Assembly (NCBI GenBank): GCA_963814375.1 | Contig: CAWFCQ010000002.1 | Coordinates: 42,864 to 106,863 of the forward strand | Length of the DNA stretch: 64,000 bases | Direction: 5' to 3' | Source of the DNA: an uncultured Chloroflexia bacterium | Lineage (GTDB): Bacteria > Chloroflexota > Limnocylindria > QHBO01 | Shown here: piece after piece, positions 39,313 through 50,640 of the stretch | Layout: the number at the start of each line of letters is the position of its first letter | Numbering within the stretch: position 1 is the first letter of the stretch | Notes under the pieces: generated by a model | What the model saw: the letters and a program-made list of their open reading frames with translations, nothing else | Told to the model about the DNA's origin: nothing | Databases searched by the model: none | Made by a program: the position numbers and the translations under genes

Positions 39313-41808
39313 ATGCGCCGCCCCCTCATCCTCACCGCTTTCCTCGCCATGCTCGCCGCCACGTGGCTCGCGCTGCGCGGGGGCGGCGGCTCCGACGCGC
39401 CACCGTATCCGGCCGATCCGCCCGTTGAGCCGGAGCCGCAGCTGTCCACCGTCCACAACGGAGGTTTCGCCGCTCTGGGCCGGGCGACCTATCGGCATCG
39501 GCGCTGGTTGCCGGTCGCCGGGCTGGCCGTCGTCATCGGGCTAAACGTCTGGGCAGCCACCGCGGGAAGCCGTCTCAGCCAGGGCGGCTGGCAGATCGCC
39601 GGATCGGAGGCGGTCCGCGCCGAGGCGCTCCTGGCCGATCGATTCGGAGAGCAGGCCACCAGCCTCATCGTCATCCTCACCGACCCCGACGGCGATGCGG
39701 CCTCAGCCGAGTTCCAGGGGACGGTCGCGGACGCGGTCGCGCCGCTGGCGGATGAAGCGATCGTCGACGAGATCCTCACCTACGCCGACGTCGGCGACAC
39801 CTCGTTCATCAGCACCGATGGCTCTCGGACCTTCGCGGTCATCCGGCTCAACGAGGACGTGGAGGAGTCGGTCGACGATGCCGAGCATCTCGCGAGCCTT
39901 GTCGCCGCACCCGATGGCGTCGAGACGATCGTGACCGGCATCCCGCTCGTGCAGCACGAATTCAACGAGGCGGTGGAGCGGGACCTGTTCCGGGCCGAGC
40001 TCATCAGCCTGCCGGTCGCCATGCTCATCCTGTTGGCGGTGTTCGGCACGGTGGTCGGTGCGATCCTGCCGATCGTGGTTGCAGGGATCGCCCTCCCGAG
40101 CGCGATGGCCATGATCACGCTCCTCGCCGGCGTCACCGAGATGAGCATCTTCGTCACCAACGTGGCGACCATGATCGGCCTTGCATTGGCGATCGACTAC
40201 TCGCTCTTCATGGTCAGCCGGTTCCGCGAGGAGCTGCGGCATCGGTCAGTGGCCGACGCGGTCGAGCACACCATGGGGACCGTCGGCAAGGCGGTGGCCA
40301 TCAGCGGGATCGCCGTGGCGATCGGCCTGGCGAGCCTCACCGTCTTCGAATCGCCGGCGCTGCGCAGCATGGGGATCGGCGGCGTCGTGACCGTCCTCTC
40401 CACCCTCGTCTTCGGCCTCACCGTGCTGCCGGCGCTGCTCGGGATGCTCGGGCCTCGGGTCAACCGCCTGCGAGTGCCGATGCCCCGCGCGCTGCGGCTC
40501 ATGGACGAGACCGGCGCGGCCGGCGAGGCACGCCACGGGCACGGGCTGTGGAGCCGGATCGCGCGCGCCGTGATGCGTCGGCCGATCCTCATCGCCACGC
40601 CGGTGCTCGTCATCCTGATCCTGGCCGGGCTGCCGTTCCTCCGGATCCAGCTCTCGACCGGCGGCAACCTGGACGATCTCCCGCCGTCGGAGAGCGTGAG
40701 CGGCTTCGAGATCCTCGCCGACGAGTTCCCCGGCGGTGGCGCCGACCCGATCGAGGTCGCCGTGCTGGACGACGAGCCGATCCTCGTCGACGGCGCCCTG
40801 CCGCCTGAGCAGGCGGAGGCGCTCCAGGCCTACGTCGACGAGCTGGCGCAGATCACTGACGTGACCGAGATCGAGTCGGTCCTCAGCCCGCCGGCCGGGC
40901 TTGACGAGGCGACCTACCTTGCGCTGGCCGCGACGCCGGAGGACCAGCGGCCGCCGGAGGCGGCGGGCGTGGGCATCTATCTCGATCAGTGGATCGCCGA
41001 CGACGTCGTCCGCGTCGACGTGTTCAGCTCGGCGCTCCCGGACTCGAGCGCCGGCCGTGAAGTGGTGGCCGACGTCCGGGCGGTGCCCCCGCCGGACGGG
41101 TTCGCCGAAACCTTCACCGCCGGGCTCTCGTCGCGCTCGGCCGACTTCATGGCCAGCTTCGCCGAGTCGGTGCCGTCCGCCGTCGCCGTGGTGGTCGGCG
41201 TGACGATGATCGTCCTCTTCCTGAGCTTCGGATCGGTGCTGCTGCCGATCAAGGCGGTCCTCATGAGCCTCCTCAGCATCACGGCCAGCTTCGGTGCGCT
41301 GGTCTGGATCTTCCAGGAGGGCAACATGTCGGGGGTGCTGAACTTCGAGGCCTCGGGGACGATCATCGCCTCCACGCCGATCCTCATGTTCGCGGTGCTC
41401 TTCGGCCTGAGCATGGACTACGAGATCCTGCTCCTCTCTCGGATCCGGGAGCGCTACCTGATCACCGGCGACAACACGCGAGCCGTGGCCGAGGGCATCG
41501 GTATCACCGGCGGGATCATCACCGGGGCGGCGCTCATCATGGTCGCTGTCTTCGGCGCGTTCGCGATGTCATCGGTGATGGTGATCAAGTCGCTCGGCTT
41601 CGCCATGGCGCTCGCCGTGCTCATCGACGCCACGGTCGTGCGCGGGATCCTGGTCCCGGCCTTCATGCGCGTTATGGGCGACCTCAACTGGTGGGCGCCG
41701 CGCTGGATGCAGCGTGCCGTTGCCCGGTTGGGGCTGTACGAGGGACCCTCGCCCGGGAACGTGCCGGCAGCTGAGGCATGGACGGGCGCCGCTCCTCAAC
41801 CCGACTAG
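39313..41808 (+). CDS. MMPL (RND superfamily) transporter with extra N-terminal TM segment
   Basis: GLALAIDYSLF..SRFREEL, FGLSMDYE.LL.SRIRE, two-fold internal repeat. Confidence 0.92.
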   Translation: MRRPLILTAFLAMLAATWLALRGGGGSDAPPYPADPPVEPEPQLSTVHNGGFAALGRATYRHRRWLPVAGLAVVIGLNVWAATAGSRLSQGGWQIAGSEAVRAEALLADRFGEQATSLIVILTDPDGDAASAEFQGTVADAVAPLADEAIVDEILTYADVGDTSFISTDGSRTFAVIRLNEDVEESVDDAEHLASLVAAPDGVETIVTGIPLVQHEFNEAVERDLFRAELISLPVAMLILLAVFGTVVGAILPIVVAGIALPSAMAMITLLAGVTEMSIFVTNVATMIGLALAIDYSLFMVSRFREELRHRSVADAVEHTMGTVGKAVAISGIAVAIGLASLTVFESPALRSMGIGGVVTVLSTLVFGLTVLPALLGMLGPRVNRLRVPMPRALRLMDETGAAGEARHGHGLWSRIARAVMRRPILIATPVLVILILAGLPFLRIQLSTGGNLDDLPPSESVSGFEILADEFPGGGADPIEVAVLDDEPILVDGALPPEQAEALQAYVDELAQITDVTEIESVLSPPAGLDEATYLALAATPEDQRPPEAAGVGIYLDQWIADDVVRVDVFSSALPDSSAGREVVADVRAVPPPDGFAETFTAGLSSRSADFMASFAESVPSAVAVVVGVTMIVLFLSFGSVLLPIKAVLMSLLSITASFGALVWIFQEGNMSGVLNFEASGTIIASTPILMFAVLFGLSMDYEILLLSRIRERYLITGDNTRAVAEGIGITGGIITGAALIMVAVFGAFAMSSVMVIKSLGFAMALAVLIDATVVRGILVPAFMRVMGDLNWWAPRWMQRAVARLGLYEGPSPGNVPAAEAWTGAAPQPD

Positions 41809-41822
41809 GCTAGGCTCGCGCG

Positions 41823-42089
41823 GTGACCCGCGAACGCCTGGAAGCGCTGACGGACCGATGGCGCGCTCGCCACGACGCGCGAGCCGCGGGTCCCCGCCCG
41901 GTCGCCGACCCCGAGCGAGAGGCGTTGGCGGCACGGTCGTTTCCATACCGATCCGTGCGGCCTCACGAGTACGTGGCGATGCACGGCGCGGACATGATCG
42001 GCTTCACGTACGACGAGGCCCGATACGCCGATCCGGAGCTCGACGCCTGGCTGGTCGAGGTTGGACGCCTCCTGCGGGATAGCAGGTGA
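41823..42089 (+). CDS. Hypothetical protein (88 aa)
   Basis: GTG 6 nt after TAGGCT; GTGA overlap with next gene. Confidence 0.65.
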   Translation: MTRERLEALTDRWRARHDARAAGPRPVADPEREALAARSFPYRSVRPHEYVAMHGADMIGFTYDEARYADPELDAWLVEVGRLLRDSR

Positions 42090-42689
42090 AGCTTCCGGGC
42101 TGGGCGATCGCGCTCGTCGCGGAAGTCTGCGCCGCTGCCGGCACCCAGCCGCCACGGCTCACGTGGCGGGCACGGAGAGGGGAGCATTCCACCGGGGTGA
42201 CCCGCCGGGACGCTCGGCGTGGTCTCGGTCCGTGCCGGAACCGATACGCTCGACCAGCGGCTCACCCTGCTGCACGAGCTCGCCCACTGGCTCTCGCCGT
42301 CACCGCGCCGCCATCGTGGCCGGGCGACACACCATGGGCGCGCCTTCTACACGATGGCATTCGACCTCTACCGCCGTCACGGCATTCCCGATGCGGATGC
42401 GCTGCGGCTGGAGTCGGGCCGCTATCGCAGCTCGCTCCGCCACGCTGCCGCCCTCGAGGTCTCGGGGGCCCTCGAGGCTCTGGCCGAGCATCGCGCATCT
42501 CTCCGCGCCCGTCCGCGGCGGCGCTGGCGCGTCCTGGTCGCGGAGCATGTCATCCGTCTCGAGCGCTCCGGGCGGTGGACCGTCTGCTCGCGCTGCGGTC
42601 AGCGCGTCGTTGGCCAGAACCTCGCCCGGCTGCGGCGCACGCGCCGTCCCGTGTCGCACGTCCTGATGACGAGCGCCGAGGCGTCCTGA
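42086..42689 (+). pseudogene. SprT-like zinc metallopeptidase with C-terminal CxxC; split by apparent +1 frameshift at ~42215 (possible sequencing error)
   Basis: MKLPGW...GVTRRDA joins GVVSVRAGTD...LLHELAHW...HHGRAF...CSRC; span 604 nt = 3n+1. Confidence 0.7.
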
Positions 42690-42703
42690 GCGGGCCGCTC
42701 AGG
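42685..42703. terminator. Hairpin between convergent genes
   Basis: CCTGAGCG-ggc-CGCTCAGG spanning both stop codons. Confidence 0.4.
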
Positions 42704-43595
42704 CGGGCGCGCCGACCAAGTCCCTCGCGCGCGCTGCCGCTTCGGCGAGCGCATTCACCGATGCCACCGAGCGCGGGAAGACATGCGTGATGAGGTGGTC
42801 GATTCCGAGCTCGGCGTAACCGGCCAGCCCGGCAGCCATCTCGTCGACCGTGCCGCGCATGGCGTGCTCCGGCGTGTCGGCGTCGGCGCCCTCGAAGGCG
42901 GCGTGGATGCCGGCGGTCAGCGTCAGCGTCGTCGGATCCCTGCCGGCCGCATCGATCGCCGCCCGGAGGTTCGTGAGCCTCGTGCGCAGCTCGTCGGCGG
43001 CTTCCGGGAAGCCGAACCAGGCGCCGTTCCACTGGTCGGCGTGCCGCGCGACGAGGTCGAGCATGCGCGGCTGCTTGCCGGCGATGAGGATCGGCGGCCC
43101 GCCGGGGCGCACGGGACGCGGCAGGAGCTCGGTCTCGGCGCGGTGCCATCGGCCGCTGAAGCTGACCTTCCCGTCGCGCAGCAGTGACGCGATGATGGTC
43201 AGCGCCTCCTCGAACCGGCCGACGCGATGGTCGAACGGGTAGTCGTAGTCGTCGAACTCGGGCTGATGCCAGCCGCAGCCGAGGCCGAGGATGAGCCTGC
43301 CTCCGCTGACGTCGTCGAGCTCGGCGGCCATCTTGGCGGTGAGCGCCGGGTTGCGGAACGGCGTCGCCAGCACGAGCGGTCCGATCTCGACGCGGCTCGT
43401 CACCGCGGCGACTGCCGTGAGCACGGTCCAGGCCTCGTGGATCCCGACGACCTCCTCGCCGTCGCGGAAGATGAGGTGGTCGGGCAACCAGACGGAGTCG
43501 AGTCCGCCGGCCTCGGCGGCCAGTGCCATCTGCTTGATGTCGTCGTAGCCGGCCACGTCATCGTCGCCGAGGGGGAGCATCAGTCCGATCTTCAT
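42699..43595 (-). CDS. LLM class flavin-dependent oxidoreductase
   Basis: MKIGLMLP, SVWLPDH, RNPALTAKMAAELDDVSGGRLILGLGCGW, PILIAG. Confidence 0.9.
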   Translation of the reverse strand: MKIGLMLPLGDDDVAGYDDIKQMALAAEAGGLDSVWLPDHLIFRDGEEVVGIHEAWTVLTAVAAVTSRVEIGPLVLATPFRNPALTAKMAAELDDVSGGRLILGLGCGWHQPEFDDYDYPFDHRVGRFEEALTIIASLLRDGKVSFSGRWHRAETELLPRPVRPGGPPILIAGKQPRMLDLVARHADQWNGAWFGFPEAADELRTRLTNLRAAIDAAGRDPTTLTLTAGIHAAFEGADADTPEHAMRGTVDEMAAGLAGYAELGIDHLITHVFPRSVASVNALAEAAARARDLVGAPA

Positions 43596-43645
43596 GGTGC
43601 TCATGCTAGCGTCGCGCCTCGGACGCATCGGTCTACCGTAGGCCG

Positions 43646-44764
43646 ATGTCCGATCTGCCCCTCACCGGGATCCGCGTCGCAGACCTGAGCCGGGTTTTGG
43701 CCGGGCCGTTCGCGACGATGCTGCTGGGCGATCTCGGCGCGGACGTCATCAAGGTCGAGCCGCCGGATGGTGACGAGACCCGGACATGGGGACCGCCGTG
43801 GTGGGGGGATCCGTCAGATCGGCGTAGCGCCTATTTCGCATCGGTCAATCGCAACAAGCGCAGCATCGTGCTCGACCTGCGCACCGATGAAGGTCGCGTC
43901 ACCCTGGACCGCCTCCTGGCGCGCAGCGATCTGCTCGTCCACAACTACCGGCCGTCGACCGCCCTTCGCCTGGGCCTCGAGACCGATGCGCTCCGCGAGC
44001 GCCACCCTGACCTCGTTGTCGCCACCGTGGGTGGCTTTCCCGGCGCCGATGCCGAACGTCCCGCCTACGACCTGCTGGCGCAGGCGGTCTCCGGGCTGAT
44101 GTCGGTGACCGGGGAGGCCGATGGTCCGCCGATGAAGGTCGGCGTGGCGCTGCTCGACCTCATCGCCGGGCTCGAGTGCGCCGTCGGGGCGCTCGCCGCG
44201 CTCGTCGGTCGCGGTCGCGGTTCGGGCGTCGCCACCGTGCAGGTGAACCTCGTCGAGGCAGGCGTCACCTCGCTGATCAACGTCCTCGGCAACTACCTCG
44301 CGACCGGCGTCGAGCCTGGGCGACATGGCAATGCGCATCCGAACATCGCGCCGTATCAGGCGTTCTCGGCGCGCGACGGCCATCTCGTGATCGCCGTTGG
44401 TAACGACGCGCAGTTCGGTCGGCTCCTCGCCGCACTCGGGCTCGAGGATCCCGACGGGCGTTTCGCGACGAACGCGCTGCGGGTGGCCGCGCGCGAGGAG
44501 CTGTCGGCGTGGCTCGGCGGAGCGATCGGACGATGGGAGCGTGGTCAGCTCGTGGCCGCGCTGTCCGAGGCCGACGTGCCCGCGGGGCCGGTCAACAATG
44601 TGCCCGACGCACTTTCGGCTATGGGCGACGGATGGGTTAAGGAGCTCGACGGTGTGCGCGTGGCGCCCGGTCCGATGCGCATCGACGATCAGCTCACGCC
44701 GCTGCGACGACCATCCCCACGCCTGGGCGAGCACACCGACGAGGTGCTCGCGGAACTCGAATGA
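43646..44764 (+). CDS. CaiB/BaiF (class III) CoA transferase
   Basis: PLTGIRVADLSRVLAGPF, LGDLGADVIKVE, NRNKRSI, YDLLAQAVSGLM, PRLGEHT. Confidence 0.93.
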   Translation: MSDLPLTGIRVADLSRVLAGPFATMLLGDLGADVIKVEPPDGDETRTWGPPWWGDPSDRRSAYFASVNRNKRSIVLDLRTDEGRVTLDRLLARSDLLVHNYRPSTALRLGLETDALRERHPDLVVATVGGFPGADAERPAYDLLAQAVSGLMSVTGEADGPPMKVGVALLDLIAGLECAVGALAALVGRGRGSGVATVQVNLVEAGVTSLINVLGNYLATGVEPGRHGNAHPNIAPYQAFSARDGHLVIAVGNDAQFGRLLAALGLEDPDGRFATNALRVAAREELSAWLGGAIGRWERGQLVAALSEADVPAGPVNNVPDALSAMGDGWVKELDGVRVAPGPMRIDDQLTPLRRPSPRLGEHTDEVLAELE

Positions 44765-44768
44765 GGAA

Positions 44769-44844
44769 TGGAGCGGGAGACGGGATTCGAACCCGCGACA
44801 GCCGGCTTGGAAGGCCGGTACTCTTCCAACTGAGTTACTCCCGC
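44769..44844 (-). tRNA. tRNA-Gly(TCC), 76 nt, CCA encoded
   Basis: Reverse complement GCGGGAGTAACTCAGTTGGAAGAGTACCGGCCTTCCAAGCCGGCTGTCGCGGGTTCGAATCCCGTCTCCCGCTCCA; acceptor stem GCGGGAG/CTCCCGC, anticodon arm CCGGC-CTTCCAA-GCCGG, GGTTCGAATCC T-arm. Confidence 0.97.
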
Positions 44845-45461
44845 GCGGAGCGCGCTACCCACGTCCTCAGACGGTGGCAGTTCGCGCAGACGATATCGCA
44901 TTTCGCGACCTCGCCCAAGATTGTCGCAGTGGACTGCCGGCCGACCATTCGCGTAACCGTATAGAGCTTGTCGGCAGGATCGCGGTGATCGAAGTCCATC
45001 GAGCATGCCTCGAAGCGTCCGCTGCAGTCTGCGCACGGCACGTCGCGAAGCCCGTCCAGGAGTCTGACCTGCTCTCTCCATTTCCGGAGCCTCAGGACCT
45101 GCGAAGGCGCCTTCGACGCATCCCTTCTCGGTCGCCTGCGCTCTGTGTCGCGAGTCCGGAGTCGGTGGCAGTTGACGCAGACGATGTCGCATTTCGCTAC
45201 TTCCGCGAGAACCCGCTGCGTGGACATGAGCATCGCGCGGCCGGTCATCACGTTGAATGACTTCGTCGACGGATCTCGATGGTCGAAGTCCATCTGGTGA
45301 GGCTTGAGCTGCCTGCCGCAATCCGTGCACGGGACGCGTCGCAGGTCGCGGAGGAGCTCGACCATGCCCGCCTGCCGAACTCGCACGCGCTGGAGCTCGA
45401 GCTCGCGATTCCGCGCGTAGTACTCGACGTTGTATGGGCGTTGGCTGCGTCTGCGCGACAT
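44835..45461 (-). CDS. Tandem double HNH (betabetaalpha-Me) zinc-finger endonuclease-like protein (208 aa)
   Basis: Two internal repeats each with CxxC...MDFDHRDP...EVAKCDIVC(V/A)NCHRLRT; basic N-terminal helix; consensus promoter immediately upstream. Confidence 0.85.
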   Translation of the reverse strand: MSRRRSQRPYNVEYYARNRELELQRVRVRQAGMVELLRDLRRVPCTDCGRQLKPHQMDFDHRDPSTKSFNVMTGRAMLMSTQRVLAEVAKCDIVCVNCHRLRTRDTERRRPRRDASKAPSQVLRLRKWREQVRLLDGLRDVPCADCSGRFEACSMDFDHRDPADKLYTVTRMVGRQSTATILGEVAKCDIVCANCHRLRTWVARSARE

Positions 45462-45466
45462 GCACG

Positions 45467-45485
45467 ATTATAGCACAGATGTTCT
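45467..45485 (-). promoter_or_regulatory. Extended -10 promoter (TGcTATAAT) overlapped by a putative LexA/SOS box (AGAAC-ATCT-GTGCT)
   Basis: Minus strand reads TAGAACATCTGTGCTATAATCGTGC-ATG; TATAAT ends 5 nt before ATG 45461; box differs by one base from AGAAC-N4-GTTCT. Confidence 0.75.
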
Positions 45486-45637
45486 ATTTACCCTCACAAA
45501 GGTGGCGCGGACGGCCATGCAATCCACCGAACTCCTCTTGACCGCACACCTAGACTTACGCCGCGGCCCGGCAACATGAGCCAGGCGGGAGGCTCCTGAC
45601 CGGACCGTTCGGGGGGCACACCGAGGAGGATTGGCAC

Positions 45638-47224
45638 GTGACAGCTACTGCGCAGTCCCCGGACCCAGCGTCCCCGACCCTCGCGCGCAACGCCATCGGC
45701 CTTACCGAGGTCCTGTTCCAGTCGATCACGCACATGGCGCCGGCCGTCGCCACTGCGATCTCGATCGGCGCCGCGACCGCCTTCGCCGGCGGGATCACGC
45801 CGCTCGCCCTTGTGTTCGCCATGATCGCGGTGCTCTTCACCGCATATTCGATGAGCGAGCTGGCGCGTCACCTGCCCTCGGCGGGTGGGATGTACACCTA
45901 TGTCGGGCGCGGGCTCGGCTCGTTCTTCGGCTGGCTGGTCGCCTGGTCGTTCGCCTTCGCCGAGCCCCTGATCATGCCGATTCTGCTCGGCGGCTTCGGC
46001 TTCTACGGGGCGATCTTCCTGTCGACCTACCTCGGCATCGAGTTCGAGATGGCCTGGATCGTCCTGGCGCTCGTGTGTGCGGCGCTCGTGTGGTTCCTCA
46101 ACTACCGCGGCATCGCGCTCTCGACTCGAACGGGAGTGGCCCTCGGCCTGATCGAGATCGGGATCTTCCTGCTCATCTCGACGCTCCTGATCGTCAACGC
46201 CGAGGAGAACACGCTGAGTGTCTTCGTCCCCGGGGAGGCGGGCCTGCTTCCGGCGTTCCAGGGGATGATCTTCTGCCTCCTGGCATTCATCGGCTTCGAG
46301 GCCGCCGCCCCGCTCGGCGAGGAGACGGAGGAACCGCGGCGCACGATCCCGAAGGCGGTGATCTACTCGGCGGTCCTCGTCGGCGTCTTCTATGTCTTCA
46401 ACATGTACGCCGCGACGGTGTACTTCGGTCCCGACAACATGACCGACTTCCTGGCTGCCAATGACGGCGACCCGTGGGGTGGGATGGCGACCGAGGTGAT
46501 GGGCACGCTCGGCGGCCTGCTCGTGATCTTCGCGATCCTCAACAGCTGCATCGCGAACGCGAACTCGAGCGCAACGGCGGCCACGCGTTCACTGTTCGCG
46601 ATGGGCCGGGCCACCCTGATCACGCGCTGGTTCGCAACGATCCACCCGACATACAGGTCACCGGTGAACGCGGTCCACTTCCAGACGATTCTGGCGGTCA
46701 TCGTCGCCATCGGGATCGGGCTCGCCCTCCCTGACGACCCGATTCCGGGAGCACCCGGGCTCAACGTCTACATCTGGCTCGGGACCGCCGTCGGGCTGCT
46801 GTTTGCCGGGATGTACATCCTGGTGAATCTCGCCTGCATCGGCTACTTCCTGCGCGAGGGCAGGAGCGAGTTCAACCCGCTGAAGCACGTGGTGGTGCCG
46901 ATCCTCGGCGTGATCGCGATGATCCCGGCGGTATTGGCCGTGATCGGCGGCGTCACCATCCCGATCCTCGATGTCGAGCTCGCCCCGTACGAGAACTCGC
47001 TGCGCTGGACGGCACCGGTCGTCGGCGTGTGGGTCCTGCTCGGGATCGTCTTCTACTTCGTGCTCCGGGCCAGGAACCCGGAGGCGCTGGAGCGCGTGGA
47101 CGATGTCTACGGCGGCGAGGATGCACCCGGTCGAGCAGCCCGCCAGCTCCTGACCGATGCGGGCCGGCGGACGACCGCCGGCCCGTTCGCTACGCGAAGA
47201 TCCCGAGGGGGCAGTGGGCGGTGA
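45638..47224 (+). CDS. APC-family amino acid permease (native stop probably 47153; apparent +1 in CCC run 47126-47128)
   Basis: SITHMAPA, PSAGGMYTY, FIGFEAAAPLGEE; GAGGAGG RBS; removing one C gives DAPVEQPASS-stop just before the hairpin at 47160. Confidence 0.9.
   Translation: MTATAQSPDPASPTLARNAIGLTEVLFQSITHMAPAVATAISIGAATAFAGGITPLALVFAMIAVLFTAYSMSELARHLPSAGGMYTYVGRGLGSFFGWLVAWSFAFAEPLIMPILLGGFGFYGAIFLSTYLGIEFEMAWIVLALVCAALVWFLNYRGIALSTRTGVALGLIEIGIFLLISTLLIVNAEENTLSVFVPGEAGLLPAFQGMIFCLLAFIGFEAAAPLGEETEEPRRTIPKAVIYSAVLVGVFYVFNMYAATVYFGPDNMTDFLAANDGDPWGGMATEVMGTLGGLLVIFAILNSCIANANSSATAATRSLFAMGRATLITRWFATIHPTYRSPVNAVHFQTILAVIVAIGIGLALPDDPIPGAPGLNVYIWLGTAVGLLFAGMYILVNLACIGYFLREGRSEFNPLKHVVVPILGVIAMIPAVLAVIGGVTIPILDVELAPYENSLRWTAPVVGVWVLLGIVFYFVLRARNPEALERVDDVYGGEDAPGRAARQLLTDAGRRTTAGPFATRRSRGGSGR
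47160..47185. terminator. Hairpin between convergent permease and amidase genes
   Basis: CGGGCCGGCGG-acga-CCGCCGGCCCG perfect 11-bp stem. Confidence 0.6.
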
Positions 47225-48131
47225 CGACGAAGTTCGGCACGTCCACGATCTCGCTGATGCGCAGGTCCACCGCGACCGAGCACAGCAGGTAGGCCTGGAT
47301 CGGGTCGAGGTCGTGCTCGCGACCCAGCCACTCGATCATGCGCGAGATCGCGTCGCGCGAGGCGGTCATCAGGTCCGGCCCGATGCCGTCGGTGGCGTAC
47401 CTCGCGCCGTTGCGCAGCGCGGCATGCGGGTCGGGTGCGGCGACGAACTCGGGCCCGGTGACGTGGAGGTCCTTGCGCACGCTGAGGCGGACGAGCGCGC
47501 GCATCGGCGTCTCGATGGCCGTGCCCGAGACCTCGCCGTCGCCCTGGGTTGCATGCCCATCGCCTATCGAGAAGCGAGCTCCCGCATGGAATACCGGCAG
47601 GAAGAGGCTCGAGCCGGCGACGAGGTGGCGGGTGTCCATGTTGCCACCGTGCAGGTCGGGCGGAATGGTCGAGAGCGGCCCGGTCTCTGGCGCGACCCCG
47701 AGCTCTCCGCAGAAGGGCGCGAGGGGCAGCCGGATGCCCGGCCAGAACTCGACGCGGTCGGCGCCCGGGTCGAGGCGCGTGATCTTGAGCGAGGCGTTCG
47801 GGAAGTCGTCCGCCATGAGCCCGAAGCCGGGGATCGAGGCGGTCCAGCCCCAGTCCGCGGGCTCGAACTCGAGGAGGTCGACCTGGAGGGTGTCGCCCGG
47901 CTCGGCGCCGGCGACCTCGACCGGACCGGTGACCTGGTCGACGCTCGCGAAGTCGAGGGTCGCCAGCGCGTCGGTCGTCGAGTCCGCGGTGATCTGGCCG
48001 TTGGAGGCATCGAGGCAGTCGAACTCGACCACGTCGCCCGACCCGACTGTCGCCACCGGTTCGATGGCCGGATCCCAGGCCAGGTGGTTCTGATCGGCGC
48101 CGATGCGTGTCGCCGGACCAGCAGAGCCCAT
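47190..48131 (-). CDS. Acetamidase/formamidase family protein
   Basis: TGPVEVAGAEPGDTL, HGGNMDTRHL, GDGHATQGDGEVSGTAIE, AYLLCSVAVDLRISEIVD. Confidence 0.92.
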   Translation of the reverse strand: MGSAGPATRIGADQNHLAWDPAIEPVATVGSGDVVEFDCLDASNGQITADSTTDALATLDFASVDQVTGPVEVAGAEPGDTLQVDLLEFEPADWGWTASIPGFGLMADDFPNASLKITRLDPGADRVEFWPGIRLPLAPFCGELGVAPETGPLSTIPPDLHGGNMDTRHLVAGSSLFLPVFHAGARFSIGDGHATQGDGEVSGTAIETPMRALVRLSVRKDLHVTGPEFVAAPDPHAALRNGARYATDGIGPDLMTASRDAISRMIEWLGREHDLDPIQAYLLCSVAVDLRISEIVDVPNFVVTAHCPLGIFA

Positions 48132-48142
48132 GGGTCGACCTC

Positions 48143-48439
48143 CTACTCGATCTTGATCTCTTCGTGCTGGCTGCCGGTCTTCTCCTTGGCCTCGGCCTCG
48201 TCGAGGCGCTCGATCCAGCGATCGAGGTACACCCGCGCGGCGAGCAGCTGCTCGCGGCCCGCGGTCTTGAGGTGCTTCCGGGCCTCTTCGGGGAAGACGG
48301 CATGCATCACGGCCCAGAAGGCGCTCTCCATCCCGCTGCGGCTGTCGTCCACGGTGGATCGCCAGGTGCTCCGCTTCTCGAGCTCGGCGATGCGCGACTC
48401 GAGCTGTGCGGTTCGGTCGGTGGGCTGTTCATCGGTCAC
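48143..48439 (-). CDS. Small helical/coiled-coil hypothetical protein coupled to the ArsA/Get3 ATPase
   Basis: GTGA overlap with upstream stop; QLESRIAELEKR, HLKTAGREQLLAARVYLDRWIERL, C-terminal HEEIKIE. Confidence 0.7.
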   Translation of the reverse strand: MTDEQPTDRTAQLESRIAELEKRSTWRSTVDDSRSGMESAFWAVMHAVFPEEARKHLKTAGREQLLAARVYLDRWIERLDEAEAKEKTGSQHEEIKIE

Positions 48440-49629
48440 GACGGTGTCTCCTGTTCGCGGGCGGTCCCGCTGCCGAATCGGATCCTGAGGGTGCCGTCCT
48501 CGAACTTCGCGCCGCTCGTCGGCGCGTCCACGAGGAGCCGAGGAAGGATGAGCGTCCGTCGCCACGTGCCGAGGTCGATGATGAGCTCGTCGCCATGGCG
48601 TGAGAGATGGATCTGCTGCTTCTCGGTGAAGGGTAGATCGACCGACAGCAGGAAGGTGCCGTTGTCGCGGACGACCTCGTAGGGACGCCCTCGGTAGAAG
48701 AAGGCGGTCGGGTCGGCATCGGCGTACAGCGCGTTGGACAGCTCGCGGAGCAGATCGACGCCGACCATCTCGCGGTCGAAGAAGGGCGCCTTCTTGACCG
48801 GGATCGGATGGAACGTCTTCTCCACGAGCGGGCCGTAGCGCTGCTGGGCCTCGTACCAGCCGCGGAAGTACTCGCCGACCTCGTCGGGCAGCACGCGGTT
48901 CGCGACGACGAGGTCGGTGGGGTAGCCGTAGAGGTGGAAGTAGGTGAACGAGCGCTGTGCCTCGGCGATGACGACCTGCTCGAGCGTCAGCACCACGCGG
49001 ACGGACGTGGTGTCGCGATCCGTCAGGAGCGTATGCATGTGCTCGAGGCGCGCGAACAGCTCCTCGCCGGCGTCGAAGACGTCGTCGCCGGGCATCGGCA
49101 TGCCGACCACACGCTGGATCAGCGGGCCGGTGAGCTTGGTGATGCGCCGGGTGAGCGGCTCGATGCGCTGCATCCACCAGCGCGCCGCGTCGGGCAGCGA
49201 CAGCAGGCGCAGCGTCTCGCCGGTGGGGGCGGAGTCGACGACCACGACGTCGTAGGCGCCCGAGTCGTGATGGTCCGCGATCCACAGCAGGGCTCCGACC
49301 TCGTCCATGCCGGGCAGGACGGTCATCTCCTCCGCCATCACGTCATCCAGCCCTCTCCAGCGCAGGACCGATGCGGCGTACTGCTGGATGCGACCCCAGT
49401 AGCGCGTGACGTTGAAGAAGACGTCCGACTCCTGCGCCCACAGGTTCGGCACGATCTCGCGCGGGGTTGGACCGAGCTCGAGGTCGAAGGCGTCGCCCAG
49501 GCTGTGGGCGATGTCGGTCGACATCACGATCGTGCGGTAGCCACGATCGGCGCATGCCAGGGCAGTCGCGGCGGCGACGCTTGTCTTGCCGACGCCGCCC
49601 TTACCGGTGTAGAGGAGGATGCGCGTCAC
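48436..49629 (-). CDS. ArsA/Get3-family ATPase with C-terminal HSP20-like domain
   Basis: GKGGVGKT, STDIAHSLGD, LPGMDE, VDSAPTGET, single ATPase domain, C-terminal DELII.LG..RR.L.LP alpha-crystallin-like segment. Confidence 0.9.
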   Translation of the reverse strand: MTRILLYTGKGGVGKTSVAAATALACADRGYRTIVMSTDIAHSLGDAFDLELGPTPREIVPNLWAQESDVFFNVTRYWGRIQQYAASVLRWRGLDDVMAEEMTVLPGMDEVGALLWIADHHDSGAYDVVVVDSAPTGETLRLLSLPDAARWWMQRIEPLTRRITKLTGPLIQRVVGMPMPGDDVFDAGEELFARLEHMHTLLTDRDTTSVRVVLTLEQVVIAEAQRSFTYFHLYGYPTDLVVANRVLPDEVGEYFRGWYEAQQRYGPLVEKTFHPIPVKKAPFFDREMVGVDLLRELSNALYADADPTAFFYRGRPYEVVRDNGTFLLSVDLPFTEKQQIHLSRHGDELIIDLGTWRRTLILPRLLVDAPTSGAKFEDGTLRIRFGSGTAREQETPS

Positions 49630-49695
49630 GGCGCGGGAACGCCTCCGATGCGAGCGTCGATTCTACCGACGTCCGAGGCTCAGGAACGTCCGTCG

Positions 49696-50640
49696 TCAGG
49701 TTCCGGCCAGCTGCTCGACGACGGCATCGAGCTCGCCGACCTCGCCGACCATGATCGACGTGATCCCGAGCTCATCCCGGAGCCTTCGGAACTTCTCGAC
49801 GAAGCCGTCCGCGGTGTTGATGAAGATGTGCGGCGAGTCGAGCAGCTCCTCCGCCGTGATCGGCACGCCGCTCCGCTCGGTGAGGCGCTCGGCGACCTCG
49901 CCGGCCTCGCGCAGCGGTGCATCGGTGACGCTGATGCCGGTCATTGACGGGTAGATGTTGAGCTCGAGGGTCTCGAACCGATCGCCCGCCGCCTGCCGCA
50001 CCCAGTCGATCTTCTCGCGGGTGCCCTCGATGGTCACCGAAGACGGATCGGCGGCTCCGACGGGCAGGATTCTTGGCGCCATCCCGACGATCTGCGCCTC
50101 GCGTGCCGCGAGCTCGAGGGTCCGCCTCCCGCCGCCGCCGATGAGGATCGGCGGATGTGGCTTCTGGATCGGCTTTGGCTGAGCGTCGTACTCGCGGATC
50201 GTGTAGTGCTCGCCGGCGAAGCTGAACGGCTCGTCCGCGAAGCAACGCTTGAGGATGGTGACGGCCTCCGCCAGGCGCGCCTGACGCACGGGCGTCGGAT
50301 CGAACGGCAGGCCGATCGCCTCGTACTCTGGGCGGTTCCAGCCGGCGCCGATGGCGACGTCGAGCCGCCCCTCGCTGAGGATGTCGAGGCTCGCCAGGTC
50401 CTGCGCCAGCACGGCGGGATGGCGGAGGTCGTTGTTCAGGACGAATGCGCTGATGCGCAGGGTCTCGCTGATCGCGGCGATGGCCGCCATCGTCGGCGCC
50501 GGCGAGAGCTGCGGGATGAGGTGATCGGGCACGACCAGCGTGTCGATCCCGATGGCCTCGGCGCGGCGGACCGTCTCGGTCAGCTCTCGGATGCTGGCGA
50601 TGCCCCGCGCATCGGCGAGGAAGCGGAACGGACGAGCCAT
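49696..50640 (-). CDS. LLM class, probable F420-dependent oxidoreductase (TIGR03621-like)
   Basis: MARPFRF, VLNNDLRHPAVLAQDLASLDILSEGRLDVAIGAGW, PILIGGGGRRTLELAAREA. Confidence 0.88.
   Translation of the reverse strand: MARPFRFLADARGIASIRELTETVRRAEAIGIDTLVVPDHLIPQLSPAPTMAAIAAISETLRISAFVLNNDLRHPAVLAQDLASLDILSEGRLDVAIGAGWNRPEYEAIGLPFDPTPVRQARLAEAVTILKRCFADEPFSFAGEHYTIREYDAQPKPIQKPHPPILIGGGGRRTLELAAREAQIVGMAPRILPVGAADPSSVTIEGTREKIDWVRQAAGDRFETLELNIYPSMTGISVTDAPLREAGEVAERLTERSGVPITAEELLDSPHIFINTADGFVEKFRRLRDELGITSIMVGEVGELDAVVEQLAGT

Follow-up and report, generated by a model that had tools for sequence, protein, structure and literature searches.

A predicted LexA operator fused to an apparently leaderless promoter ahead of a tandem HNH-like nuclease gene and tRNA-Gly(UCC) in Limnocylindria

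In an uncultured soil bacterium of the Limnocylindria (Chloroflexota), a tandem HNH-like nuclease gene that runs into the gene of tRNA-Gly(UCC) is preceded by a predicted 18-bp LexA operator, whose right arm is fused to the extended -10 element of an apparently leaderless promoter, 5 nt before the ATG. We consider it likely, with a probability of roughly 0.68, that LexA truly represses this promoter, probably only in part, both LexA binding and induction by DNA damage being predicted from sequence. In the mechanism that we propose, the -10 element and the spacer would be hidden beneath an operator-bound LexA dimer, which would thereby block RNA polymerase, and upon DNA damage the RecA-stimulated self-cleavage of LexA would release the HNH promoter. 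A T-to-G change in the right arm of the operator would make repression partial and allow a noticeable basal expression. The full-length HNH mRNA would run into tRNA-Gly(UCC), and a promoter-like element in the codons of the second nuclease module (TTGGGC-N17-TATCGT) would supply this essential tRNA independently of LexA.

What stands out is the conserved package, in which a phage-type tandem HNH gene, apparently leaderless and preceded by a LexA box, is joined to an essential tRNA whose putative promoter is hidden in the codons of the nuclease. The analysis also yields a LexA motif and a first sketch of the SOS regulon for the Limnocylindria, an abundant uncultured class of soil bacteria, and it reveals a phage-type HNH nuclease gene that is kept under predicted SOS control beside an essential tRNA across the class.

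Promoter anatomy and the predicted leaderless start

The window, by which we mean the whole 64-kb stretch of DNA that was analysed, reads AGAACATCTGTGCTATAATCGTGC on the minus strand from 45485 to 45462, followed by the ATG at 45461-45459, while the slightly longer segment from 45487 to 45459 reads ATAGAACATCTGTGCTATAATCGTGCATG. The original prediction of a perfect extended -10 element that ends 5 nt before the ATG and lacks a ribosome binding site agrees with the sequence. The TATAAT hexamer (45467-45472) is preceded by TGC, which gives an extended -10 element (TGC-TATAAT, 45467-45475, minus strand), and it is separated from the start codon by the 5-nt discriminator CGTGC (45466-45462; discriminator and ATG together, 45459-45466, minus strand), a gap that contains no Shine-Dalgarno sequence. 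TATAAT had been described as the only perfect copy ahead of a gene in the window, and indeed it occurs just once in the 64 kb when both strands are counted. A usable -35 element is absent, the hexamer at a spacing of 17 nt being GAGGGT, and a two-hexamer promoter scanner reported no promoter at 45462-45485, a miss that lies with the tool, which cannot pick up a promoter lacking a -35 element such as that of the HNH ORF.

The promoter is overlapped by a palindrome that was initially read as AGAAC-N4-GTGCT. These letters are correct, but they truncate the element, which together with its flanks (ATAGAACATCTGTGCTAT) extends to ATAGAAC-ATCT-GTGCTAT and occupies 18 bp on the minus strand (45470-45487). 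Its left arm is GAAC (45484-45481) and its right arm is GTGC (45476-45473), with G45474 replacing the T of the consensus. The right arm and its flank overlap the TGn motif and the first three bases of TATAAT, the TG of the extended -10 element being supplied by the T-to-G variant of the operator, and in this position LexA binding would block RNA polymerase. The assignment of the palindrome as a predicted LexA operator (SOS box) is based on a one-mismatch match to the consensus of the genome, its rank with a position weight matrix and its footprint in the closest clade.

The ATG at 45461 is the sole start candidate of the ORF, since the conserved residues Q7, R8, N11, V12, Y14 and Y15 place the start upstream of codon 7, and with TATAAT as the promoter the leader can therefore comprise at most a few bases. 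Leaderless initiation appears to be common in this organism, because TAnnnT hexamers peak 12-13 nt before candidate starts genome-wide (34-35 cases compared to a background of about 5). The HNH hexamer starts at -11, which is one base closer than the 6-7 nt gap of most candidates in the genome, and the resulting 5-nt gap is the commonest spacing inside the HNH family. The leaderless mRNAs of Deinococcus deserti (PMC4007540) and of mycobacteria are similar in that they have the same TAnnnT a few bases before an AUG or GUG and no Shine-Dalgarno sequence, and the genome-wide TAnnnT peak is another feature that is found here as well.

Transcripts of the gene are present in four rhizosphere metatranscriptomes, in which near-identical contigs (97-99%) extend over 44875-45463, and within 40500-50500 the HNH ORF is the only gene with full-length near-identical RNA contigs. 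The gene is transcribed without deliberate DNA-damage treatment in these samples, and it seems to be comparatively well expressed in situ. One 247-nt contig (97.5% identity, depth 2.5, from a related strain), which like the others comes from RNA without 5'-end chemistry and from samples untreated for DNA damage, ends at 45463 plus 3 unaligned nucleotides. This end lies 2-5 nt from the ATG and agrees, at low depth and in a related strain, with a start at or beside it, and upstream of the -10 element there is no RNA contig in any of the runs, 45487-45690 being uncovered. A leaderless mRNA with a predicted transcription start at or beside A45461 is well supported.

The LexA motif of the genome and of the class

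The LexA of Dehalococcoides uses the Gram-positive box. In the assembly studied here (G000; 2.5 Mb, 70% G+C), in which the window occupies C2:42864-106863, there is one lexA gene (G000:C6:161604, minus strand), the product of which has the LexA_DNA_bind and Peptidase_S24 domains (Pfam), and its promoter is TTGACA-ATAGAACATCCGTTCTGC-TAGCGT with the box located between the two hexamers. A perfect GAAC-N4-GTTC is found at the promoter of lexA itself in 30/30 sampled genomes of the class. The core alone is uninformative, as its 23 perfect sites genome-wide compare with about 19.5 expected by composition. Those perfect sites that have AT-rich flanks, however, stand directly before an ImuA'-like RecA-fold gene, dnaE2, uvrA, a gene for an Lhr-like DEAD helicase, a radical-SAM gene and lexA, the products of these SOS-box genes being confirmed by Pfam, and the boxes at lexA, dnaE2, the imuA'-like gene, uvrA and the lhr-like helicase gene yield the consensus ATAGAAC-N4-GTTCTAT (ATAGAACNNNNGTTCTAT). 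Because it occurs at SOS genes and at lexA in 30/30 genomes of the class, GAAC-N4-GTTC is, on comparative grounds, the LexA box of this organism, just as it is in Firmicutes and Actinobacteria (PMC3323433). In the literature, we found no account of LexA boxes in Chloroflexota or of SOS control in Limnocylindria, and nothing on LexA-controlled tRNA-linked HNH genes.

Both recA and lexA had been named as sources from which the motif could be built. While lexA provides a perfect core, no LexA box could be recognised in the 900 nt that precede recA, where the best matrix score is at most 7.5 bits, and recA may be situated outside of the LexA regulon in this lineage. In the upstream region of recA (G000:C4:344900-345860) the gene is preceded by a small basic ORF. 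The top matrix matches outside the training set include core variants of the same kind as that of the HNH site at other likely SOS promoters, namely GCAC beside the lhr box and GACC before ruvC, and more degenerate boxes precede ruvB and hflX.

When compared to ATAGAACNNNNGTTCTAT, the HNH site agrees at 13/14 specified positions. When two or fewer mismatches are allowed, the window contains this match and no other (0.01 expected from shuffles of the window), and the site is the sole one-mismatch match in the 2.5-Mb genome (about 0.014 expected by chance, estimated from composition), which in addition contains four perfect sites, two of them copies of one locus, and three two-mismatch sites, the one of lexA among them. 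A weight matrix made from 12 other boxes, with the HNH site excluded, gives the site 25.5-26.5 bits and ranks it 4th to 9th genome-wide, the rank varying with the pseudocount. Scored with the LexA motif of its own genome, the site is thus placed above the boxes of lexA (24.2 bits) and uvrA (18.2 bits), in line with the original prediction. Four random sequences of 2.5 Mb contained nothing that scored as high.

The SOS boxes of Bacillus subtilis and Mycobacterium tuberculosis (Cheo box; PMC3323433, PMC3381160) have the same palindromic core overlapping the promoter, and the regulons share lexA, dnaE2/imuA', uvrA, ruvC and lhr. In contrast to these systems, the flanks are ATA/TAT instead of TC/GA and recA is boxless here. 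Moreover, the right arm of the HNH operator differs from the Cheo box in being fused to a leaderless -10 element and in having a core mismatch which at the same time supplies the TG of the extended -10. A further parallel is that the LexA protein of M. tuberculosis also controls a repeated, selfish-looking gene family, 13E12 (PMC3381160).

Several other boxes deserve a mention. Next to the perfect box of the ImuA'-like gene there is a divergent promoter, that of tRNA-Ala(CGC) (TATACT), and the box overlaps its -35 position. The ImuA'-like locus is found twice in the assembly, at G000:C2:238177 (the end of contig C2) and at C5:241457, so that either the locus is truly duplicated or the assembly or the binning has made it redundant. 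A 92-aa Cys/His-rich ORF with no match in Pfam is preceded by a perfect ATAGAACGGGCGTTCTAT box that runs directly into TATGCT (G000:C4:324174), and is a candidate SOS gene. Finally, the start of a 379-aa ORF carries two perfect boxes (G000:C6:159618 and 159651), which are separated by 33 nt and located about 2 kb away from lexA.

Conservation of the predicted operator and the competing readings

A scan with one genome per species identified 370 relatives of the ORF, nearly all of them in MAGs of Limnocylindria/Chloroflexota, and the distribution of the ORF is patchy among 40 relatives. Loci were compared for the best 80 of these 370 relatives, 78 of which have upstream sequence. The ORF is followed by tRNA-Gly(UCC) in 77/80 loci. 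The box core is perfect in 40 of the 78 upstream regions, has one mismatch in 28 and more in 10, where composition would yield about 0.1 perfect and about 2 one-mismatch cores by chance. Furthermore, the -10 element begins directly after the box core in 49/51 loci that have a TAnnnT within 12 nt past the box, and between the -10 element and the start, 24 loci have a gap of 5 nt, 13 have one of 6-7 nt and 6 have one of 8-9 nt. A TTGACA -35 element is additionally present in a subgroup of the HNH loci, and paralogous two-module units located before tRNA-Gly(CCC) carry perfect ATAGAAC-N4-GTTCTA boxes. Judged from these alignments, the combination of box, -10 element and near-leaderless start is a property of the gene family that goes beyond one locus, and LexA control as the predicted ancestral state of the HNH family in Limnocylindria is well supported.

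In the window, the core of the box is not perfect (GAAC-ATCT-GTGC, 7/8), and the mismatch affects the third base of the right arm. The replacement of GTTC by GTGC alters a base of the core that never varies at lexA (30/30 genomes), and it may strongly reduce the affinity of the operator. In relatives with perfect boxes the three bases before the -10 element are TTC, while the lineage of the window has TGC; therefore the T-to-G change created the TGn of the extended -10 element at the same time as it broke the core of the palindrome. The change probably lowers the strength of the operator and raises that of the promoter, leading to leaky repression, which is suggested by the core mismatch together with the ORF transcripts in bulk rhizosphere RNA. 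One base that would both weaken an operator and strengthen a promoter offers a natural example of repression tuning. A single mismatch is compatible with binding, since in vivo the LexA of M. tuberculosis is found on boxes that have as many as three mismatches (PMC3381160). All four closest relatives (L025, L026, L027 and L030, 65-80% protein identity) have the GTGC variant, and in a box-anchored alignment of these loci with that of the window only ATAGAAC..TGTGC is conserved, the upstream flanks being unrelated. The left arm has no promoter function, and its conservation therefore favours continued protein binding. The claim of a LexA-repressed promoter is hence supported for the family and likely holds here, with the qualification that repression is probably weakened by the core mismatch.

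The same T-to-G change could have abolished useful LexA binding altogether, in which case the decayed operator would now act as a constitutive and strong promoter of the extended -10 type, which serves the nuclease gene and, through read-through, the tRNA. Such decay would fit the facts that lexA has an intact core in 30/30 genomes, that the change puts a TGn before a perfect TATAAT, and that core erosion is common in the family, with one mismatch in 28/78 loci and two or more in 10/78. It would likewise be in keeping with the assembled transcripts from four untreated rhizosphere metatranscriptomes, which within 10 kb come from the ORF and from no other gene. We regard it as unlikely, however, given that ATAGAAC, which has no promoter role, remains invariant in the clade down to 65% protein identity although everything upstream has diverged, and given that GCAC/GTGC and GACC variants occur at other likely SOS promoters too.

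Another explanation is that the gene is not leaderless and that its promoter is located further upstream (45490-45630), TATAAT being incidental. The RNA contig ends 2-5 nt upstream of the ATG and not exactly on it, and the 5-nt gap is below the modal 6-7 nt of the genome, both of which would suit a longer transcript. This explanation is nevertheless very improbable, because about 50 orthologous loci with unrelated upstream sequence have TAnnnT at a fixed place, directly past the box and 5-9 nt ahead of the start, there is no Shine-Dalgarno sequence, RNA contigs over 45487-45690 are missing from every run, and TATAAT occurs only once in 64 kb. It is scarcely credible that a different regulator, and not LexA, recognises the palindrome or that the match arose by chance: the lack of a box at recA, a classic SOS gene, speaks for such a reading, but the motif is present at lexA in 30/30 genomes and also before dnaE2, imuA', uvrA, lhr and ruvC, and chance would produce such a site 0.01 times per window and about 0.014 times per genome. 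Partial repression by LexA is the reading that we prefer and follow below.

The tRNA, its putative embedded promoter and the nuclease gene

The gene of tRNA-Gly(UCC) (44769-44844, minus strand) is the sole credible copy in the assembly. A second tRNA-Gly(TCC) predicted by ARAGORN (G000:C8:404715-404801) is 87 nt long, has a poor structure and lies within a coding region, and it is most likely a false positive. The placement of an essential tRNA behind a repressible gene calls for another promoter. Other tRNAs of the genome have a TAnnnT that starts 13-20 nt upstream, whereas tRNA-Gly(UCC) has none there. A putative internal promoter (44890-44918, minus strand) is found in the codons of HNH module 2, about 45 nt before the +1 of the tRNA, and consists of TTGGGC (44918-44913), a spacer of 17 nt and TATCGT (44895-44890).

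The codons of the two modules differ in this respect across the 67 loci that have both. The Asp codon of the KCD motif is GAC in 53/67 module-1 copies and GAT in 60/67 module-2 copies, a TAnnnT is present inside the KCDIVC codons of module 1 in 1/67 loci and of module 2 in 58/67, and the pattern TTGnnn-N16-18-TAnnnT is found in 0/67 and 23/67, respectively. The choice of TTG as a Leu codon, similarly to that of GAT over GAC, maintains the embedded promoter-like element, and on account of this synonymous-site selection in the module-2 codons an embedded promoter is the best explanation. In addition, ORF-less loci of the same genus, several of which are syntenic on the upstream side, keep a relic, TGCGATATCGT(CTG), 12-17 nt before the tRNA, and over 14 nt this relic does not differ from the KCDIVC codons in the second HNH module.

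Supply of the tRNA is thus probably constitutive via the embedded promoter, and SOS read-through would merely add to it, which would explain how an essential tRNA can be placed behind a repressible gene. The suggestion that the supply of tRNA-Gly might become damage-responsive is not borne out, as the tRNA appears to have its own promoter within the 3' end of the ORF, indicated by the synonymous bias of module 2. Capture of the strong promoter of the tRNA by the element, which had been offered as another possibility, was rejected as well: the LexA-box promoter travels with the ORF family and occurs at several tRNAs, tRNA-Gly(CCC) among them, and where the ORF is absent, the tRNA loci rely on another -10 element, which is proximal.

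The stop codon of the HNH ORF (TAA, 44837-44835) coincides with nucleotides 8-10 of the tRNA. The stop is inside the tRNA in 52/77 loci, in 39 of those at tRNA nucleotides 8-10, the frame is open through the entire tRNA in 14/77, and a stop before the tRNA is found in only 11/77. Since the ORF has no stop before the +1 of the tRNA, any full-length mRNA is necessarily transcribed together with tRNA-Gly(UCC), and processing by RNase P would leave a non-stop HNH mRNA. The embedded promoter and the stop inside the tRNA offer a testable model for restraining a potentially toxic nuclease.

The gene itself (44835-45461, minus strand) encodes a tandem HNH-like protein of 208 aa, which consists of two modules, each carrying CxxC...DFDHRD...KCD(I/V)VCxNCH. 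Among 43 sequences, C45, C48, C95, C143, C146, C192, C195, H61, N97, H99 and H196 are invariant and C98, H159 and N194 are conserved to at least 90%, and the four cysteines, D-H, N and H are kept in both modules. PHROG families annotated as HNH endonuclease match each module separately (E 1.9e-47 and 6.2e-41), and the Pfam HNH family PF01844 matched 1/43 members (E 0.0012). Searches of Pfam, NCBIfam, PADLOC and PDB sequences gave no meaningful match for the ORF itself, which was placed only by the PHROG families and by tblastn against phages. An AF2 model with a pLDDT of 95 had no match below E 0.18 in a Foldseek search against the PDB, and the weak top matches are mostly HNH proteins, including the HNH domain of Cas9, Gme HNH 4H9D, Cap5 and T4 Endo VII. 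These similarities point to a putative nuclease.

Single-module homologues were detected by tblastn in 169 phage records, mainly of Streptomyces and Mycobacterium phages. In 4/5 records inspected they are located inside tRNA arrays, where their ends either fall 10 nt short of the tRNA that follows or overlap with it, as exemplified by Myrna gp144, PegLeg gp102 (10-nt overlap) and Wofford gp171 (38-nt overlap). HNH genes are present in the tRNA arrays of the actinophages Myrna, PegLeg, Wofford and StarPlatinum, and the protein studied here is homologous to the actinophage HNH genes (PHROG 3106/2255; tblastn), which in PegLeg gp102 and Wofford gp171 are likewise directly upstream of a tRNA with overlapping 3' ends. 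Unlike the phage genes, the gene described here is chromosomal, has undergone a tandem module duplication, is fixed at one essential tRNA class-wide and is located under a LexA box. By analogy, the nearest functional counterpart might be SegB of phage T4, a free-standing homing endonuclease of the phage tRNA cluster (PMC2330249), which is a GIY-YIG protein, whereas the protein here is HNH-like.

In the same genus, only three of the genomes with a retrieved tRNA-Gly(UCC) locus keep the ORF, and syntenic ORF-less alleles retain an ORF relic of 14-22 nt. These alleles look like deletion derivatives rather than never-occupied sites. A tentative idea, possible rather than probable, is that the locus is a selfish or domesticated class-wide unit encoding an SOS-timed HNH nuclease for tRNA-gene-directed homing or gene conversion, akin to the HNH genes of actinophage tRNA arrays. 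Such a unit would have three stacked controls, namely a leaderless promoter fused to a LexA operator, a stopless run into the tRNA and a tRNA promoter in the nuclease codons, and if the idea is true, the hidden tRNA promoter would make the nuclease gene hard to delete cleanly.

On the other side of the HNH promoter, the intergenic segment 45538-45565 of the window is 96% identical to that of a same-genus relative (L111). On the plus strand it contains TTGACC...TAGACT about 90 nt before an amino-acid permease gene (45638-47224), and this element is probably the promoter or leader of the permease.
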